From NCBI GenBank assembly GCA_964353745.1, contig CAYGWD010000002.1, positions 1 through 61,705 of the forward strand: a DNA stretch of 61,705 bases, given 5' to 3'. The notes under the pieces were generated by a model. That model did not search any database, was not told where the DNA came from, and saw only the letters and a program-made list of their open reading frames with translations. The translations under genes were made by a program, and so were the position numbers. Positions 159-46,856 of this stretch are shown piece by piece (positions within the stretch are counted from its first letter, which is position 1; each line of letters starts with the position of its first letter). The stretch comes from an uncultured archaeon (lineage in GTDB: Archaea > Aenigmatarchaeota > Aenigmatarchaeia > Aenigmatarchaeales > Aenigmatarchaeaceae).

Positions 159-491
159 TCAAATATCTATTACCATAACTCCTCTGATTTTTGCTTCATT
201 TGGAAAGTATCGCATACCATATTGCACTCCATCTATATAAAATTTGTTTGGTTTGCCATCCCACCCACTAAGGTATTTCAGTTTTCCTTTATCAGAATAA
301 AAATCTAAACCTATAATTTGACCATTTTTCCTTACAAATTCATCAATAGCTTCAGCATCGCTTATTTTAAACTTTTTAGATTTTCGGAAACCGAGTATAG
401 TCTTATCAACAAAAACCCTTACTTTTTCTTTTAAAGTATAACCACCTTTATTTTTTAAGGTTTCCGAAACACTTCTTACAGTAACGCTCAT
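159..491 (-). CDS. hypothetical protein (110 aa)
   Basis: Open frame only; no motif recognised. Confidence 0.35.
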   Translation of the reverse strand: MSVTVRSVSETLKNKGGYTLKEKVRVFVDKTILGFRKSKKFKISDAEAIDEFVRKNGQIIGLDFYSDKGKLKYLSGWDGKPNKFYIDGVQYGMRYFPNEAKIRGVMVIDI

Positions 492-1515: not shown

Positions 1516-1995
1516 TTGCTGGGAAAGTATTTAAATTTTAGTTTTAAAACTTCTTTTATGAGGAAAAGAGCTTTTATCTGTAGCAGTTTGCGTACTCTTG
1601 AAATAAGAGAGGAAAATGAAAAAATAGCAACTGTGACAAATGAGACTGGTTTTGATTTGTATCTACCACAGAGAGGACTTCCTTATGGTGTAGTTAAAGA
1701 CCCGAAATTAATTTTTGAAACAAATTGCAGAGAAATCGATAAATCATATTTTATGATAGTGAACACAAACGGACTTTTGTATAGCGAAGAGAAAATAAAA
1801 GGAAATTCATTAAGTAGAAACATAATAGAAGGAGCAGGAGTTGAATTTGAATGGGGATATGGAAGTGGAAAAAGAAAACCAATAGTTGTTTATTCCACAG
1901 TATCGGATGCTCCATTTCCTAGAAATTTTACTACGCATACCTTGGAGGAGCTAAGACAAAAACTGCTTGAGATAGCTGAAAAAGGATTTAAATAA
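1516..1995 (+). CDS. hypothetical protein
   Basis: Open frame; start uncertain (alternative ATG near 1558). Confidence 0.4.
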   Translation: MLGKYLNFSFKTSFMRKRAFICSSLRTLEIREENEKIATVTNETGFDLYLPQRGLPYGVVKDPKLIFETNCREIDKSYFMIVNTNGLLYSEEKIKGNSLSRNIIEGAGVEFEWGYGSGKRKPIVVYSTVSDAPFPRNFTTHTLEELRQKLLEIAEKGFK

Positions 1996-2016
1996 TATCA
2001 AAATTTAATTCTGTTT

Positions 2017-2058
2017 ATGATTTGCCTAGGTTTGGAATCAACTTATAGAAGTAAATAA
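2017..2058 (+). pseudogene. decayed 5' remnant of kae1 (MICLGLE then unrelated sequence and stop)
   Basis: ATG ATT TGC CTA GGT TTG GAA encodes the canonical Kae1 N-terminus MICLGLE. TTTGCCTAGG is shared with the functional copy at 3509-3518. Homology ends after GAA (2037). Confidence 0.6.
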
Positions 2059-2075
2059 ATTATATAAAATTCTAA

Positions 2076-3503
2076 ATGCTAATATTGTCTGAAGGTGAAA
2101 AATTGTCTGAAAAGTATATAGAATTTAAATTAACCGACTTGCCAATAAATGAGTTTTGTATTCTTTTGGAACCCGATGTGCAAAGGAAGTTAATAGAAGA
2201 ATCTGCAGTTAAAATAGCTAAAAAAACAGGAAGAGAATACGGGAAAGTCAAAGATTTAGCAAGATATCTTAAGAATAGGTGTGAAAGTCTCTCTGAGATA
2301 AAAGTAGAATCGCTATGGAACCAGTACATTAGATTATGGAAAATTAATAGAATGTTTATCCCAATTGATTGCATTATTGAATTATGTAAACTGACCAATC
2401 AGAATTCTGAAAAAATTAAAAAACATATTATTAGGCTAAAGCACATAACGGGAAGAAATCATTCTTCAATATCGTTCAATTTCCTTTATGATGAGACCAT
2501 AGCTGGTTTGGGAGAATTGATAAAGTGTGAAGGTCATCTTAAGAAAAATTTAAGACAGTTTAGCTTGGAAAATGCGAGCGTAGACCTGATAAATCACTTT
2601 AAATCACTTCTAAAAGAGTTAGGCGTGAAAAATAAATATGAGTTGTTGAAGGTTGAGACGGACATACCAAAGAAGGCTATTATTAGAAAGGTTCTAATCA
2701 AAGGTAAAGAGATCAGGTTTTATACCAGGTTCAATAAATCTGGAAAAAGAAAGGTTATGTTCCATGACAAATTCAAGTATGGAACTAGAAAGGAATATGC
2801 TATAATAACTGATAGTAATGCGATAAAAGTTGCTGTAAAGATACCATTTAGATTAAACATAACGGCAGAAAGCACTTACGGAATTTCGAGTTCGTCTATC
2901 CATATAGATGTTACAAACATCACATTATCAAAAATTTTACACTTGCTTACAAATGTTCCAAGCGGAAAAAAGTCAAAGATTATTGAGTTTTGTCCGTTAC
3001 TTGGATTATCCCCTTTAATTGTGAAAAGAGAGGCTATAAATGTTATTTTTGCTTCTGAGTGCTGGTTGGAAGGAAATAGGATTCGTATATGCTTGAATAG
3101 TTTAGATTACGTTAAGGATATTTATAGCCTGCTTAAAGGGTTTGGAATGAACCCAATTTTAAGCGATTATAATTATCTTTCAATAAATACTTGGAGAGAC
3201 CTAGAGATATTTGATAAAAATTTTAATTTAATAATTAGCGAGAAGGAATTAAAACTCAAAGAGATGATATCGAATAAGAAGAACTTTAAACATGGAGAAG
3301 GGTTATCAGAAATTCTCAATTTCATAAAAGAAAAAAAATCTGTCTCTGTGAAGGAAATATCATCGAAATTTAACAAAAGTAAAGATGATATATGGCAGCA
3401 TCTCAAGAATGGCGAAAAACAGAATCTTATAGCGAAAAATACAAACTTCTGGCCGTATAGATATTCTTTAACAGAAGGAGGTGAATCATCTCTTGAAAGA
3501 TAA
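2076..3503 (+). CDS. free-standing double-motif LAGLIDADG homing-endonuclease-like protein with C-terminal winged-helix-like region
   Basis: Motifs IAGLGELIKCEGH and FASECWLEGN (acidic residue followed by Gly at the LAGLIDADG positions); C-terminal KKSVSVKEISSKFNKSKDDIWQHLKNGEKQNLI resembles a wHTH; stop overlaps the kae1 start by 11 nt. Confidence 0.6.
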   Translation: MLILSEGEKLSEKYIEFKLTDLPINEFCILLEPDVQRKLIEESAVKIAKKTGREYGKVKDLARYLKNRCESLSEIKVESLWNQYIRLWKINRMFIPIDCIIELCKLTNQNSEKIKKHIIRLKHITGRNHSSISFNFLYDETIAGLGELIKCEGHLKKNLRQFSLENASVDLINHFKSLLKELGVKNKYELLKVETDIPKKAIIRKVLIKGKEIRFYTRFNKSGKRKVMFHDKFKYGTRKEYAIITDSNAIKVAVKIPFRLNITAESTYGISSSSIHIDVTNITLSKILHLLTNVPSGKKSKIIEFCPLLGLSPLIVKREAINVIFASECWLEGNRIRICLNSLDYVKDIYSLLKGFGMNPILSDYNYLSINTWRDLEIFDKNFNLIISEKELKLKEMISNKKNFKHGEGLSEILNFIKEKKSVSVKEISSKFNKSKDDIWQHLKNGEKQNLIAKNTNFWPYRYSLTEGGESSLER

Positions 3504-4492
3504 AACGTTTTGCCTAGGCATCGAAGGTACTGCTCTAGTTTGCCTGCAGAAATACTTTTGGTGTCGGTATTGCTGATGATAAGGGAAACATTCTAGCCAA
3601 TGAAAAATCAATGTACAAACCTCCTCTAGGGAAGGGAATAATACCTCGTGATGCCGCTGACCATCATTCTGAAAATGCAATGACGGTTCTAAGAAAAGCT
3701 TTAGAGAAAGTTAATTTAAAAATGAGCGATATTGATATAATCGCCTTCTCTCAAGGGCCTGGCTTGCCACAGTCGCTTCGCGTTACCGCGGTTTTTGCTA
3801 GAACATTGTCTTTGAAAAATAATAAACCTTTAATTCCAGTTTGTCATCCTATTGGGCATATCGAAATAGGTAAGTTAACAACAGGTGTCAAAGATCCTAT
3901 AATTGTTTATCTAAGCGGTGCTAACACCCAAATAATTGCTCATCTTGAAGGTCGATATCGAATAATAGGCGAGACAGAAAATCTTCCTTTGGGCAATGCT
4001 ATTGATATGTTAGCTAGGGAATTAAATTTACCTATGCCAGGCGGACCCGAAATCGAAAAGCTGGCATTAAGAGGAAATTACATAAATCTTCCATATACTG
4101 TTAAAGGTTGTGATTTAAGTTATTCTGGTATTTTAACAGAAGCAGTAAAGAAATATAATCAAGGCGTTAAAGCAGAAGACGTTGCCTATTCTTTTCAAGA
4201 GACTTGTTTTGCCATGCTAGCAGAAGTGACAGAGAGAGCTATTGCCCATACCGATAAGGAAGAAGTTCTACTTGTAGGTGGAGTGGCTGCCAATAAAAGA
4301 CTGCAGGAGATGCTAAGGATTATGACAGAGGAGAGAGGAGCAAAGTTTTTTGTTGTTCCTCAGGAATATGCAGGCGACAACGGTTCAATGATTGCTTGGA
4401 CAGGAATTCTCGCGTATCAGAAAGGTTATAAAACCACTATCGAGGACAGTCATATCAAACAAAAATGGAGAGTAGACGAAGTGGAATGGTAA
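3493..4492 (+). CDS. kae1: tRNA N6-adenosine threonylcarbamoyltransferase Kae1 (KEOPS), interrupted by a 16-nt putative BHB intron (exon 1 3493..3535, exon 2 3552..4492)
   Basis: Exon 1 (TTG start 9 nt after GGAGGTGA) gives KDKTFCLGIEGTA; exon 2 continues (H)TFGVGIADD. Full-length similarity to archaeal Kae1 (SQGPG, VGGVAAN, GDNGSMIAW). The two parts are in different frames unless 16 nt are removed. Confidence 0.8.
3536..3551 (+). other. putative 16-nt bulge-helix-bulge (archaeal endonuclease-type) intron in kae1
   Basis: hBHBh' fold: helix 3522-3529/3553-3560, central helix 3530-3533/3546-3549, bulges 3534-3536 and 3550-3552, inner helix 3537-3538/3544-3545. The exact junction within the bulges is not determinable from sequence. 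Confidence 0.6.
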
Positions 4493-43117: not shown

Positions 43118-43297
43118 ATGGAAATTTTTTCTTCTGATACGGCATCCTTATGCGCGAAATGCAAGGGTAGGCTATGGTGTGGCAAGGACGGATGTCCTAT
43201 TCTTGTCAAGTTCTATACGCAGACAAAAGTCAAACCATTGATAGACTCGACATACATGGAAGGTTCTTCACCACCCTCAGTATTCATTAACCTCTAA
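43118..43297 (+). pseudogene. 5' fragment (59 codons) of an Nre-like gene, duplicate of the start of 45630..46856
   Basis: CAKCKGRLWCGKDGCPILVKFYTQTKVKPLIDSTYMEGSSPPSVFI aligns with CALCKGRLWCGKGRCSLLIKFYSYTKAKPLIDSTMLSGSSPPSCFI; it then diverges and stops. Confidence 0.7.
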
Positions 43298-43355
43298 GCG
43301 TTAAGTTTAAATCTCTTTACTTCTTAGTAATAATTGATAAAAAATAAATCAAAAT

Positions 43356-44129
43356 ATGATTGTTATGAATCAACTGACAACATATGTTATGCCGGAACCT
43401 CGCGTAAAGATTGTAGGCAGAGAATTTGGATTTGTAGGACAAGCTATTCCTGTAGAGGTTGAAGGCAACGTATTAGATTATCTAAGAGCAGCTGGCGTAT
43501 ATAATTCTGATGCGGATGTCCACAACGACTATGTTCATTTTGACGATAAATTTTCTGTGTCAGAAAGATTAGGAGAAGTTGATGAAGTATTAGCTATAAT
43601 TGATGGACCTAGACTGAAAAAAGATTTGGAGAGAAAGGGACATGCATTTTTGATGGCTAAAGGAGATGCCGGCAAGTTCAGAGATGATAAGGACAAAGGA
43701 TTTATAACATGCATAAACAGAGTAATTGAGGATTTAGTTTATCAGAAAATACCTAAAGAACTTAAGTTAGATTCTGAAGTAAGACATCTAAAATTGCAGG
43801 AGGCAGTTGAGCTAATGCTTTCTGACAAAGAAGTCAGAGATACAATGTGTGATTATTGGCAGAAAAATTTAGAAGTTTTTATTAGTTTATATAAACCAAA
43901 CAAGTCTTCTTATACATCGAAAGATGGGAAATTAGATATTGTACAAACTGAATCTGAATCTTTAAGTCCACTTATGGCTGCTTCTGTTGGGTCTAGGTGG
44001 AACGATTCCTATCCTCATCGTCGTCCCGTTGCTGGTACAGGCGGGTTGATAGGTAGGTCGGAAAATGGATCGTTGTACGGTTATGGCTCTACTGTCGCCA
44101 GTTTGAAAATGTCTCAAGTAAAAGAATAA
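43356..44129 (+). CDS. hypothetical protein (cargo of the LAGLIDADG cassette)
   Basis: Open frame. Confidence 0.45.
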   Translation: MIVMNQLTTYVMPEPRVKIVGREFGFVGQAIPVEVEGNVLDYLRAAGVYNSDADVHNDYVHFDDKFSVSERLGEVDEVLAIIDGPRLKKDLERKGHAFLMAKGDAGKFRDDKDKGFITCINRVIEDLVYQKIPKELKLDSEVRHLKLQEAVELMLSDKEVRDTMCDYWQKNLEVFISLYKPNKSSYTSKDGKLDIVQTESESLSPLMAASVGSRWNDSYPHRRPVAGTGGLIGRSENGSLYGYGSTVASLKMSQVKE

Positions 44130-44416
44130 AAAAATTGTTTTCTAAAATAAATTATGCAAGAACATTCTTTCCTTCTCTTCAAGTTAGAGGAGACTTGAGA
44201 ATATTCTATGATTACAAACTTCCAAGAAAAAGCAACATGGGAAAGTTTGAAAAGAAGTTAAGATACTAATTAAATATTATAAGGAAAATAAAATTACTAA
44301 AGAAAAATTAATGAAATCAGTAGAAAGATGGTTTGCTCATGCTAAATGTGGAAACATATATAAATATAGAAAAAATTTATGAAAATAATAAATAATACCA
44401 CCAACAATATTTAGTT

Positions 44417-45652
44417 ATGGGTAATGGGATTGTTAGTCTTTGGTCCTTACCAGAAGATAAAATTTATTTAGGTTTGGAAAAAGAATTCAAAGAAAAAATT
44501 TTCAATTCAGCAAAAGAATATGCAGGAACATGGGACAATCTTGGTAAAGAACTTAATTTAAAGGTAAATAAGTACGGTAATTGCAAAATTATAGAAAGTG
44601 CAAGATGTAAAAGATTTAGTCTTTCATTACTCAATAAAATTATAGATTATTTGAATTCTAAGGGTATAAGCATAGATAAAAGCCTCATAGAAAGAAAGGT
44701 AAATGTTATTTCTTCTAAACGTGGAGGATCGAACAAATTGGCTAACAGCATTTTCAATCCAAAATTGCCTTTTAATTTCGATACAATTGATGGGTCTACT
44801 GTAATATCCTCTATTTTTCACGATGGTGGAATCAATAGTAGAAGATTGCCTCATTACAGTAATCCTGAGAATCTAGAGTTAAGGCAAAAAGTTTACAAAG
44901 CTTTTACAAACGTTTTTGGAGAATTTGTGTCTAAAAAGAGCAATCCTATAGAAAATCAACAGTTATACTTTCCAAAAATAGTTGGGATTGTTCTAACTTA
45001 TGGATTAGGCATACCTTGTGGGAGAAGAGTTATAAACAATCCATCTATTCCTGAATTCATATTTAATTCTTCAGATGATATCAAATCAGCATTCATTCAA
45101 CAAGCTTTTGATGACGAGTCTCATGTTCATAGAACTGAGAGAAATATAAGCTTGAAATTATCGTCCGGATCAAAAAATCCTTCAAGCCTCATCATTGGCA
45201 TAAAAGACCTTTTAGAGGATTTGGGAATAGAGGCTAGCGGTCCTCATTATATCGATTACTATGAAACCAAAAAAAGTGTCAGAGCTTACAGATGGTATAT
45301 ATTAATAACACACCAGGATAATCTAAAAAGGTTCTATGAGAAAGTAGGGTTTCATTCGGCATACAAGCAAAAGAGACTTCAAGAGATAGTTCAGACCATC
45401 AAATGCCATCATTATTCTACTAAGAAAACGCATGAAATATATCAAATTGCTTGTAGAAATCTCCAAAAAAGATATGAATTTATAACCAGTAGAGAACTTG
45501 CTATAGAGTTAGGTAGGAGTCAAGAATTAGCCAAGAAAATTATTCAGAAACTTGTGAACAATAAAATTCTATTAGTTAAAGAATGCCGTCATGGAAACAG
45601 AGGAGCTAAATATGTTTTAGGTGATAAACATGAATCAGTGTGCATTGTGTAA
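44417..45652 (+). CDS. free-standing double-motif LAGLIDADG homing-endonuclease-like protein with C-terminal wHTH
   Basis: VISSIFHDGG and AFIQQAFDDES motifs ~92 aa apart; C-terminal ITSRELAIELGRSQELAKKIIQKLVNNKILL; stop overlaps the nre start by 23 nt. Confidence 0.65.
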   Translation: MGNGIVSLWSLPEDKIYLGLEKEFKEKIFNSAKEYAGTWDNLGKELNLKVNKYGNCKIIESARCKRFSLSLLNKIIDYLNSKGISIDKSLIERKVNVISSKRGGSNKLANSIFNPKLPFNFDTIDGSTVISSIFHDGGINSRRLPHYSNPENLELRQKVYKAFTNVFGEFVSKKSNPIENQQLYFPKIVGIVLTYGLGIPCGRRVINNPSIPEFIFNSSDDIKSAFIQQAFDDESHVHRTERNISLKLSSGSKNPSSLIIGIKDLLEDLGIEASGPHYIDYYETKKSVRAYRWYILITHQDNLKRFYEKVGFHSAYKQKRLQEIVQTIKCHHYSTKKTHEIYQIACRNLQKRYEFITSRELAIELGRSQELAKKIIQKLVNNKILLVKECRHGNRGAKYVLGDKHESVCIV

Positions 45653-46856
45653 AGGTAGATTATGGTGTGGAAAAGGTCGTTGCTCACTTTTGATTAAGTT
45701 TTACTCTTATACAAAAGCAAAACCTCTCATTGATTCAACCATGCTTAGCGGTTCGAGCCCTCCATCGTGCTTTATTGGTTCCTACGGCTATCCCAAGGTA
45801 TTCGTAGGTCCAATGCTTCCTCCTCAACACGGCGATACGAGCATAATGGACACGCCTGAACTATGGGCTAACAAATCAATACAAGAGATAGTTGACTTTA
45901 GATTCCAGTTGGTGAGAGGAAAATACCTGACCAACATAAAGAATTTTGATGGAAAGATAGTTGAGATAACAAGAGAAATAGCTCTTGCAGAGAATTCGCC
46001 AGACGCGGAGGTCGAGTTCAAGACGAAACCCACTGGAAGAATTATTCTAAATGACGAGGTCCAACCATTCGGTCCTTCTGCATCAATGATTAAACTAGAT
46101 GTGGGAAATTATACGTACAATAAGAGAGTGGAAAAAGCGTTTTATGATACTGATTTGAAAGCCAAGGATGCTGTCATTAATTTGTATAAGGATGGTTTGC
46201 TGGTCTCTAAGATACAGAAAGCATTTTCAGTCGGCGCCTTTGGCTTGGAAAAGAACAGGAAATTCGTTCCAACTCGTTGGAGCATTACTGCTGTTGATGA
46301 TACGTTAGGTAAGAATATGATTGAATACACCAAAACCTATCCTATAATAAATGATTTCAAAATTTATGAGCATAACCAACTAGACAATAAATGGATTGTC
46401 CTTATGATTCCGAGGGAATGGTCTTACGAATTGATAGAGGCTTGGTATCCAAAGACATTGTGGAATCCTGATAGCGTGAGAACAGAGATTTTTTCTGACC
46501 ATGAATTTTATGACGGTAGAAAGACTTATGCAGAGATAGGCGGATGTTACTATGCAGCCAGACTTGCGGCCAACGAGTTGTTGAACAAGGAGAGAAGACA
46601 GGCAGGAGTCGTAATAATGAGAGAGGCTCATCCAGGATACATCATGCCCGTAGGAGTGTGGAATGTGAGGGAAGCCGTCAGACAGGCCGTTAAAAAGGAA
46701 CCAATGAGTTTTTCAACTTTGAACGAGTCACTAGCATATATCTCTAAGAAGATGGATATTCCTGTTAAGAAATGGATAGAGCATAGTGCTGTATTGAGAG
46801 ACACTCTGCAGCAAAAAAGATTGGTAGACTTTTTGAAGGTGAAAGAATGGAAGTAA
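45630..46856 (+). CDS. nre: Nre-family (archaeal DNA-repair-associated, DUF650/651-like) protein
   Basis: N-terminal CxxCKGxxWCGxxxC, ~408 aa; the family call is from memory of the N-terminal Cys motif and size. Confidence 0.5.
   Translation: MNQCALCKGRLWCGKGRCSLLIKFYSYTKAKPLIDSTMLSGSSPPSCFIGSYGYPKVFVGPMLPPQHGDTSIMDTPELWANKSIQEIVDFRFQLVRGKYLTNIKNFDGKIVEITREIALAENSPDAEVEFKTKPTGRIILNDEVQPFGPSASMIKLDVGNYTYNKRVEKAFYDTDLKAKDAVINLYKDGLLVSKIQKAFSVGAFGLEKNRKFVPTRWSITAVDDTLGKNMIEYTKTYPIINDFKIYEHNQLDNKWIVLMIPREWSYELIEAWYPKTLWNPDSVRTEIFSDHEFYDGRKTYAEIGGCYYAARLAANELLNKERRQAGVVIMREAHPGYIMPVGVWNVREAVRQAVKKEPMSFSTLNESLAYISKKMDIPVKKWIEHSAVLRDTLQQKRLVDFLKVKEWK

Follow-up and report, generated by a model that had tools for sequence, protein, structure and literature searches.

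At positions 1991 to 4492 of the window analysed here (61,705 nucleotides of contig CAYGWD010000002.1, from genome G000 of an uncultured DPANN archaeon of the order Aenigmatarchaeales), the tRNA-modification gene kae1 has two beginnings. One is stranded and one is live, an open reading frame (ORF) for a LAGLIDADG homing endonuclease lies between them, and the live gene is interrupted a few codons in by a 16-nt insertion with the form of a bulge-helix-bulge (BHB) intron. All of these features are on the plus strand.

The stranded beginning consists of 26 nt of native kae1 5' flank (the promoter region, 1991..2016), which align with the sequence before the ATG in the intronless relatives G009 and G001, and of nine codons at 2017..2043 (ATG ATT TGC CTA GGT TTG GAA TCA ACT), which read MICLGLEST. 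Together, these 26 nt and the following 27 nt correspond to the native kae1 start region of intronless relatives, whose N-terminus is MICLG[IL]ESTAHTFG and whose first nine residues, MICLG[IL]EST, are matched here. The serine codon of the stranded start, TCA, is typical of intronless alleles. Past 2043 the frame enters unrelated sequence and ends at a TAA stop codon at 2056-2058.

A free-standing homing endonuclease gene, which we call HEG-A, follows at 2076..3503 and encodes a LAGLIDADG protein of 475 aa with a C-terminal winged helix. The live kae1 begins within its 3' end: a Shine-Dalgarno-like GGAGGTGA can be read from the sequence at 3477..3484, and frame analysis places a replacement kae1 5' exon at 3493..3535, encoding MKDKTFCLGIEGTA plus the first base of a histidine codon and overlapping the HEG-A stop codon (3501-3503). 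The candidate in-frame starts of this exon, TTG at 3493 or GTG at 3481, both lie inside the last codons of HEG-A. Its reading frame gives ...KDKTFCLGIEGTA up to 3535, with FCLGIEGTA from 3508, and its N-terminal extension resembles those of other intron-bearing alleles. The 16-nt insert at 3536-3551 then breaks the frame, and the kae1 body resumes in another frame as exon 2 (3552..4492; TsaD/Kae1 family, Pfam TsaD PF00814, 268.5 bits), with 52-74% identity between this kae1 and those of relatives. It is the only kae1 match in G000.

Because the relatives have E-S-T, the stranded start is native through the ACT codon at 2041-2043. Contigs from four DNA runs, X1 to X4, supply independent copies of the region. 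The X4 contig covers 1992-2043 and then passes directly into native GCTCACACATTTGG... (GCTCAC...), an uninterrupted empty-site allele, which places the junction at 2043|2044, equivalent to 3531|3532, and leaves 4 nt between the junction and the intron. The first-pass annotation of this DNA had set the junction after GAA at 3523-3525 and the intron about 10 nt beyond it, and both values are corrected by the relatives' E-S-T and the X4 contig. The X1, X2 and X3 contigs span the 3' end of HEG-A, and those from X1 and X2 also span the intron, with at most 17 differences and no indel, so the arrangement is not an assembly artefact. Environmental DNA thus holds both empty-site and cassette alleles. 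In its other outlines the annotation agrees with what we find: the enzyme proposed at 2076..3503 is supported by a Pfam LAGLIDADG_3 score and by VIA-align comparison of its model, the replacement kae1 5' end does lie downstream of that ORF with the stranded native start upstream, and the 16-nt BHB insert at 3536-3551 forms a canonical motif by folding and by pairing in 21 alleles.

The HEG-A product passes the cut-off for Pfam LAGLIDADG_3 (PF14528) marginally, with 24.0 bits against 22.5, and its six homologues, at 47-87% identity, all contain PF14528. The predicted structure is of moderate quality (predicted local distance difference test score, pLDDT, of 65) and supports a two-domain LAGLIDADG fold, as VIA-align matched model residues 136-403 to PI-PfuI with a Z score of 12.7 (105 aligned, root-mean-square deviation 3.0), and also matched I-CreI (Z 10.6) and the archaeal intron enzymes I-Vdi141I (Z 9.4), I-DmoI (Z 8.7) and I-Tsp061I. 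Residues 406-470 match winged helix-turn-helix regulators and form a winged helix in the model. A Foldseek search of the model against the PDB had no hit with E <= 0.001 (WhiA came closest among the relevant structures, at E 0.026), and a HEG-A profile retrieved no match among PDB chain sequences. The residues E152/G153 and E328/E332 are invariant across the seven HEG-A sequences. Of these, E152-G153 and E332 are candidates, picked by eye and not by a structure-based alignment, for the acidic catalytic residues at the ends of the LAGLIDADG helices. A metagenome scan for HEG-A relatives yielded two loci, both of which end at the contig end 5' of the downstream gene.

The insert as a bulge-helix-bulge intron

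The minimum free energy (MFE) structure of the region and pair counts on 21 alleles identify a BHB motif at 3517..3565. It has a 13-bp outer helix (3517-3529/3553-3565), a 4-bp central helix (CTGC at 3530-3533 with GCAG at 3546-3549) and two 3-nt bulges (3534-3536 and 3550-3552), which amounts to a 3-4-3 geometry, followed by an inner helix of only 2 bp and a 5-nt loop. BHB introns are cut two bases into each bulge, which predicts cuts at 3535|3536 and 3551|3552 and a mini-intron of 16 nt at 3536..3551. This rule agrees with PMC4090602, the consulted part of which defines the BHB motif as a 4-bp helix between two 3-nt bulges on opposite strands, plus flanking helices. Once the predicted intron is removed, the sequence reads GCT C|AT ACT and encodes the Ala-His-Thr that every intronless relative has, and cuts by the same rule restore GCN-CAT-ACN (Ala-His-Thr) in all 23 intron-bearing alleles described in the next section.

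As a single sequence the fold is moderately unusual (MFE -24.3 kcal/mol, z = -2.58, with 4 of 200 shuffles folding as well), and with a z-score this modest the weight rests on the 21 aligned alleles. In these, 95.8% of cells pair, and sliding the partner columns lowers the figure to 33-45%. The search pattern that retrieved 20 of the 21 held some helix positions constant, and such positions are weightless; the free evidence comes from the Y/R pair and from columns 7-16/62-71 of the outer helix. Covariation is present, with six pairs altered on both sides in a compensatory manner, and the second pair of the central helix is U-A in 16 alleles, C-G in five and mismatched in none.

G000 encodes the enzymes that such an intron calls upon, namely the splicing endonuclease EndA (PF01974, 93.3 bits, a 181-aa open frame on contig C30) and the ligase RtcB (PF01139, 532.9 bits). 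The RtcB gene is split over two contig ends (C27:3-1223, profile positions 29-426, and C11:31728-31862, profile positions 1-43), which is probably an assembly break at that gene. For window positions 3300-3900, a search for RNA runs containing the locus listed none.

We also considered whether one large BHB intron, 2044-3531, might enclose HEG-A. This candidate was rejected because a check by hand found no 4-bp central helix at any register around both ACT codons.

Distribution of the intron and of the adjacent endonuclease genes

Within the order, 41 genomes were searched, kae1 was found in 37, and all 37 N-termini were inspected. An intron sits at the same position of the histidine codon in eight of these genes, while the other 29 are uninterrupted. 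Its length is 16 nt in G000, G013, G015 and G025, 14 nt in G005, 13 nt in G010 and G040, and 30 nt in G037. The eight intron-bearing genomes represent eight genera, four of which also have intronless members. In the class (DPANN archaea), 333 of the 371 genomes searched have a kae1 match. A search pattern based on the intron flanks matched 20 of the 371 genomes and its reversed control matched none (0/371). The pattern missed the alleles of G238 (28 nt), G065 (17 nt) and G266 (46 nt) because their central helix has a wobble or a mismatch, and with these the same intron site is occupied in at least 23 of the 333 kae1-bearing genomes, at lengths of 12-46 nt. A DNA pattern scan of the whole collection was uninformative: it gave at least 120 stretches, and among the 80 matches listed nearly all were chance hits in bacteria and four were from archaea.

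In G013 and G015, the place of HEG-A is taken by a different ORF, HEG-B, whose two copies are 62% identical to each other and for which no BLASTP similarity to HEG-A was found. HEG-B of G015 narrowly passes the Pfam Hom_end cut-off (21.8 bits against 21.1), and a sequence search of HEG-B against PDB chains gave no meaningful match. Five HEG-B homologues occur in the 371 genomes, at 44-100% identity (G013, G015, G090, G108 and G238), and all five genes end 26-40 nt 5' of an intron-bearing kae1. Remnants are present elsewhere. G005 keeps only the last 34 residues of HEG-B, G065 keeps both ends of HEG-A with the core deleted, and G123 has what is possibly a remnant, an 89-aa companion ORF standing alone before its intron-bearing kae1. 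This companion ORF, which has no Pfam family, precedes HEG-A in G065 and at locus L200 and HEG-B in G108; its copies lie at L222:1464-1730, L200:1567-1803, L182 (reverse) 1584-1820 and L180:169-429.

The association from endonuclease to intron is strict. The 371 genomes hold six intact endonuclease genes adjacent to kae1 (HEG-A in G000 and the five HEG-B genes), and 6/6 stand beside an intron-bearing allele, as do the remnants in G005, G065 and possibly G123. For the 29 intronless alleles of the order, tblastn with the endonucleases over up to 1.5 kb of upstream sequence (shorter for G029, 272 nt; G033, 551 nt; and G039, 982 nt) found no match, and none of the 73 upstream frames matched LAGLIDADG families. 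The large unnamed frames upstream of intronless alleles look like surface proteins. The association does not run equally in the other direction, with at least 14 of the 23 intron genomes having no endonuclease gene of any kind.

G015 has a second stranded native start, MICLGIES (L034:4026-4049); HEG-B (L034:4748-6022) lies about 700 nt downstream, past a cargo ORF. The distance from the end of the stranded start to the intron site is 4 nt in G000 and 7 nt in G015, which places the break in the recipient gene at that site. We infer two separate insertions, with two different endonucleases, that broke the gene at the same site. In the upstream sequence examined for the HEG-B genes of G013, G090, G108 and G238, no stranded native start was found.

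The intron seems to pass from lineage to lineage. Between G000 and G013 (family f1), G025 (f6), and G108, G118 and G123 (f15), its variable part is 80-90% identical, and the gene bodies of these alleles are about 60% identical in every pair. Overall, intron likeness depends little on gene-body likeness (r = 0.23) or on family, with a median of 0.47 inside families against 0.40 across them. Under a crude start-codon rule, and with the intronless set drawn from one order, the median number of residues before the LG motif is nine in the 23 intron-bearing alleles and three in the 29 intronless ones. Several intron-bearing alleles, those of several cassette loci other than G000 among them, also have a GGTGA-type ribosome-binding motif before the kae1 start, where native alleles look leaderless. 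These extended N-termini and GGTGA motifs suggest that many alleles now without an endonuclease are descended from cassettes. Segment-wise protein identity was too noisy to reveal a co-conversion tract in exon 2, with many loci failing the motif filter, and the sole hint of one is a relative's X1 contig whose match breaks off at 2031 and resumes at 3594.

Relatives of both endonucleases were also seen beside other genes. Two full-length HEG-A relatives, L203 (G005:C5:17243-18484) and L204 (G285:C9:26643-27995), with profile E values of 2.9e-54 and 5.8e-41, each extend as far as the start codon of a gene for a class I aminoacyl-tRNA synthetase (similar to valyl-tRNA synthetase, by eye), in which no frame break was seen. 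A 531-aa HEG-B relative (L194, G110:C12:8579-9721) lies directly 5' of an aEF-1alpha gene with an apparent GTG start after GGTGAT and no insert seen. Other HEG-B relatives, 28-32% identical to HEG-B, lie directly upstream of aEF-2 genes on the reverse strand in G105 (L195) and G106 (L193), as LAGLIDADG ORFs of 555 aa and 540 aa, the former with a Pfam LAGLIDADG_3 score of 28.2 bits. Both aEF-2 frames are broken about 95 nt into the gene, between ...HVHHG and KTTLTD (the P-loop codons), by inserts of ~33 nt in G105 and ~20 nt in G106. The G105 insert has a 4-bp central helix, CCAC/GTGG, with 3-nt bulges, and the G106 motif is looser.

Two further ORFs lie near intron-bearing kae1 genes. In G013, a 179-aa ORF on the minus strand (L033:12-551) overlaps the kae1 3' end, has no Pfam match and looks endonuclease-like by eye. 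In G005, a 392-aa ORF (L043:1379-2557, minus strand) has two LAGLIDADG-like motifs by eye and a C-terminal helix-turn-helix (Pfam HTH_5, 22.2 bits); it lies about 700 nt upstream of kae1 on the opposite strand, with a tRNA_edit-domain gene between. At the beginning of our window, the 3' end of a zinc-ribbon gene (...KCGYSE...) occupies 1-33. In many relatives this gene directly precedes kae1, and in G000 the two are separated by about 2 kb containing ORFs at 159-491 (minus strand), 658-798, 894-1499 (a methyltransferase) and 1516-1995. One X1 contig is without 1482-1988.

Collaborative homing and its alternatives

Our best reading, to which we assign a probability of roughly 0.6, is that this locus is a two-part mobile element in an essential tRNA-modification gene of a DPANN archaeon, an archaeal BHB version of collaborative homing. 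The evidence suggests that the endonuclease gene and the mini-intron spread as partners, with the intron splitting the endonuclease's own target. The first part would be the free-standing gene upstream of kae1, which also supplies a new start codon, a ribosome-binding site and a substitute for the first nine codons; the second would be the 16-nt mini-intron, 4 nt past the break in the recipient. The endonuclease would cut intronless kae1 at the ...EST-AHT... codons, at or a few bases from the intron site, and repair from a cassette-bearing copy would import the endonuclease gene, the new 5' exon and the intron together. LAGLIDADG enzymes are described as always leaving 4-base 3' overhangs (PMC3943268, in the part consulted), and the four bases between junction and intron in G000 (GCTC) would suit the central four of such a cut.

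In a carrier, the intron would displace the right half of a target of about 20 bp by 16 bp, and the stranded native start would retain the left half-target only, leaving neither copy cleavable. It is from this geometry that the intron is predicted to block cleavage of the carrier's own gene. The host tRNA-splicing endonuclease and RtcB would then excise the intron from the mRNA and restore Ala-His-Thr. Once the element is fixed in a lineage, the endonuclease gene would decay and go and the intron would stay. Loss of the endonuclease after fixation is part of the homing-cycle model, and with the intron persisting it would explain the at least 14 intron-only genomes, which fit endonuclease loss after spread.

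Several points weigh against collaborative homing at kae1. With at least 14 of 23 intron genomes free of endonuclease genes, the presence of the intron does not require the endonuclease. The first-pass annotation had tied the two together and held that a mini-intron widespread in lineages lacking the cassette would speak against the tie. Seen from the cassettes the tie holds, as all six intact ones and the remnants are beside an intron, but seen from the intron it does not, since the intron is often cassette-free and is, taken literally, widespread without it. The class census, made by protein-alignment start, covers 150 of 344 kae1 matches, and its intron count is a lower bound. The 89-aa companion ORF is common to HEG-A and HEG-B cassettes, and their introns are of almost one type; a single scaffold in which the endonuclease was exchanged may underlie both, in which case they would not be fully independent witnesses. 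We infer the target, the cut site and the activity of the endonuclease, as well as the splicing of 3536-3551 from the mRNA, from sequence, and the pattern-based origin of the aligned alleles narrows the covariation as noted above. Finally, the same window holds a cassette in another gene, nre (43118-46856), that has a LAGLIDADG gene and a replaced gene start and no intron. It comprises a 59-codon stranded start (43118-43297), cargo, a LAGLIDADG ORF of 411 aa (44417..45652, 27.2 bits) and the live nre from 45621, whose GTG start overlaps the 3' end of that ORF. The stranded and live nre copies are about 70% identical, and in the absence of an intron, recoding alone may protect the carrier of that cassette.

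This last case lends itself to an account of kae1 in which the intron is linked to the cassette without protecting it. The intron would be an older, independent resident of kae1, immunity would come from the recoded exon as in intronless homing, and cassettes would insert beside the intron or co-convert it only because it lies less than 30 nt from the gene start. We regard this as unlikely, though it is the alternative that we take most seriously. It would accommodate the wider spread of the intron than of the endonuclease genes, and the kae1 replacement exon does differ from the native sequence at three bases, 8-10 nt left of the intron site and within the presumed left half-site. However, the replacement covers no more than 27 nt, and to the right of the junction the sequence is native-like, so that without the intron the right half-site would be intact, and the intron is a larger change than the three-base recoding. 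In addition, the distances of 4 and 7 nt from the stranded starts to the intron site put the break there and not at the start codon, and intact endonuclease genes were not seen next to intronless alleles.

That the intron is instead a regulatory or neutral feature of the host, for example one coupling Kae1 synthesis to tRNA-splicing capacity, with its endonuclease neighbours an accident of a recombination hot spot, seems improbable. Kae1, like Cbf5, is an RNA-modification enzyme, and the cbf5 mRNA introns are described as similarly short (16-44 bp) with no linked endonuclease (PMC2738675, as far as the consulted part goes). Against such a role stand the sporadic distribution of the kae1 intron in eight genera of the order, four of which have intronless congeners, the near-identical introns across orders, the strict endonuclease-to-intron association, and the same theme at aEF-2 in G105 and G106. 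We consider it very improbable that the 16 nt are not an intron at all and reflect a pseudogene, an assembly error or programmed frameshifting, even with a single-sequence z-score of only -2.58. The X1 and X2 contigs carry the insert without indels, the interrupted gene is the sole kae1 copy in G000, and at least 23 genomes have inserts of 12-46 nt at the identical codon position with a 3-4-3 BHB and compensatory changes; lengths of 13, 14, 16, 17, 18 nt and more are not the product of one frameshift mechanism.

Relation to known systems and wider meaning

The closest parallel to collaborative homing at kae1 is F-CphI of the psbA gene in cyanophage S-PM2 (Zeng, Bonocora and Shub 2009), a free-standing endonuclease beside a group I intron that is described as specific for the intronless allele, with the adjacent intron blocking self-cleavage and travelling along (PMC6083498, partial text); trans homing by T4 mobE and I-TevIII is a related case (PMC2790892, likewise partial). 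Both the psbA and kae1 systems have a free-standing endonuclease gene next to an intron-bearing gene. Specificity for the intronless allele at the intron site, established for F-CphI, would be shared by the kae1 endonuclease, and there too the intron is predicted to be carried along and to prevent self-cleavage. In contrast to the self-splicing group I intron of psbA, the kae1 intron is a BHB intron of 12-46 nt that would be spliced by proteins. The host is an archaeon rather than a phage, the endonuclease is of the LAGLIDADG rather than the Endo VII-like type, and the kae1 cassette also swaps the start of the gene.

Archaea have their own homing introns in rRNA and tRNA genes, BHB introns that carry LAGLIDADG genes such as I-DmoI, I-Vdi141I and I-Tsp061I (PMC8598171 and PMC2738675, parts consulted). 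These share with kae1 the intron class, the endonuclease fold and, if our prediction is right, the homing logic in which an intronless allele is cut and repaired from an intron-bearing one. They differ in holding the endonuclease gene within a large intron of a stable-RNA gene, whereas the kae1 intron is in an mRNA and too small for a gene, and the endonuclease gene lies outside it, 5' of the start codon. The pre-mRNA introns of cbf5 in Crenarchaeota resemble the kae1 intron in being short BHB introns in a gene for an RNA-modification enzyme with lineage-specific presence and absence, and cbf5 is, in the part of PMC2738675 consulted and the literature searched, the only gene with confirmed splicing of an archaeal mRNA intron. 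They belong to another gene and another phylum, and they look vertically inherited with losses, while the kae1 introns are scattered and linked to endonucleases.

The exchange of the gene start also has counterparts. Mobile endonuclease ORFs that swap gene ends are found in fungal mitochondria, as in Allomyces atp6, where the displaced end is left behind. As in these ORFs and in the nre cassette, a replacement gene end travels at kae1 and the original end is stranded. Unlike the kae1 cassette, they have no intron, and divergence of the replaced sequence is credited with their immunity.

BHB introns in mRNA, LAGLIDADG enzymes in archaeal rRNA introns, collaborative homing in phages and gene-end-swapping ORFs have thus each been known separately, and what is new is the combination of a BHB mini-intron with an endonuclease outside it. 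In a full-text literature search, judged at the level of abstracts, we found no kae1 intron and no BHB intron paired with an external endonuclease. At this locus a selfish endonuclease is tied to a BHB intron whose host gene is universal and essential, and kae1 offers natural empty, filled and decayed alleles for comparison.

The aEF-2 inserts with a BHB-like fold beside HEG-B relatives raise the possibility that the pairing of an endonuclease with a BHB mini-intron may be general beyond kae1. A more tentative extension, which we hold to be less likely than not, is that the mini BHB introns of essential archaeal protein genes owe their origin and spread to acting as resistance alleles against homing endonucleases, ones that the cell can splice out. 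Ordinarily a cell would not survive an insertion into this conserved site, but a short insert that forms a BHB could be removed by the ever-present tRNA-splicing enzymes, and it would both protect the site and hitch-hike with the endonuclease. Such a process would account for the 20-33 nt inserts in the aEF-2 P-loop codons of G105 and G106 and, if true, would provide a general origin for archaeal mRNA introns.

If the kae1 locus is what we propose, gene callers systematically mis-annotate kae1, and apparently also aEF-2, in DPANN genomes. Collaborative homing would then reach from the group I introns of phages to the protein-spliced introns of archaea, and there would be a concrete reason why a mini-intron should occupy those codons of an essential gene that are conserved best.

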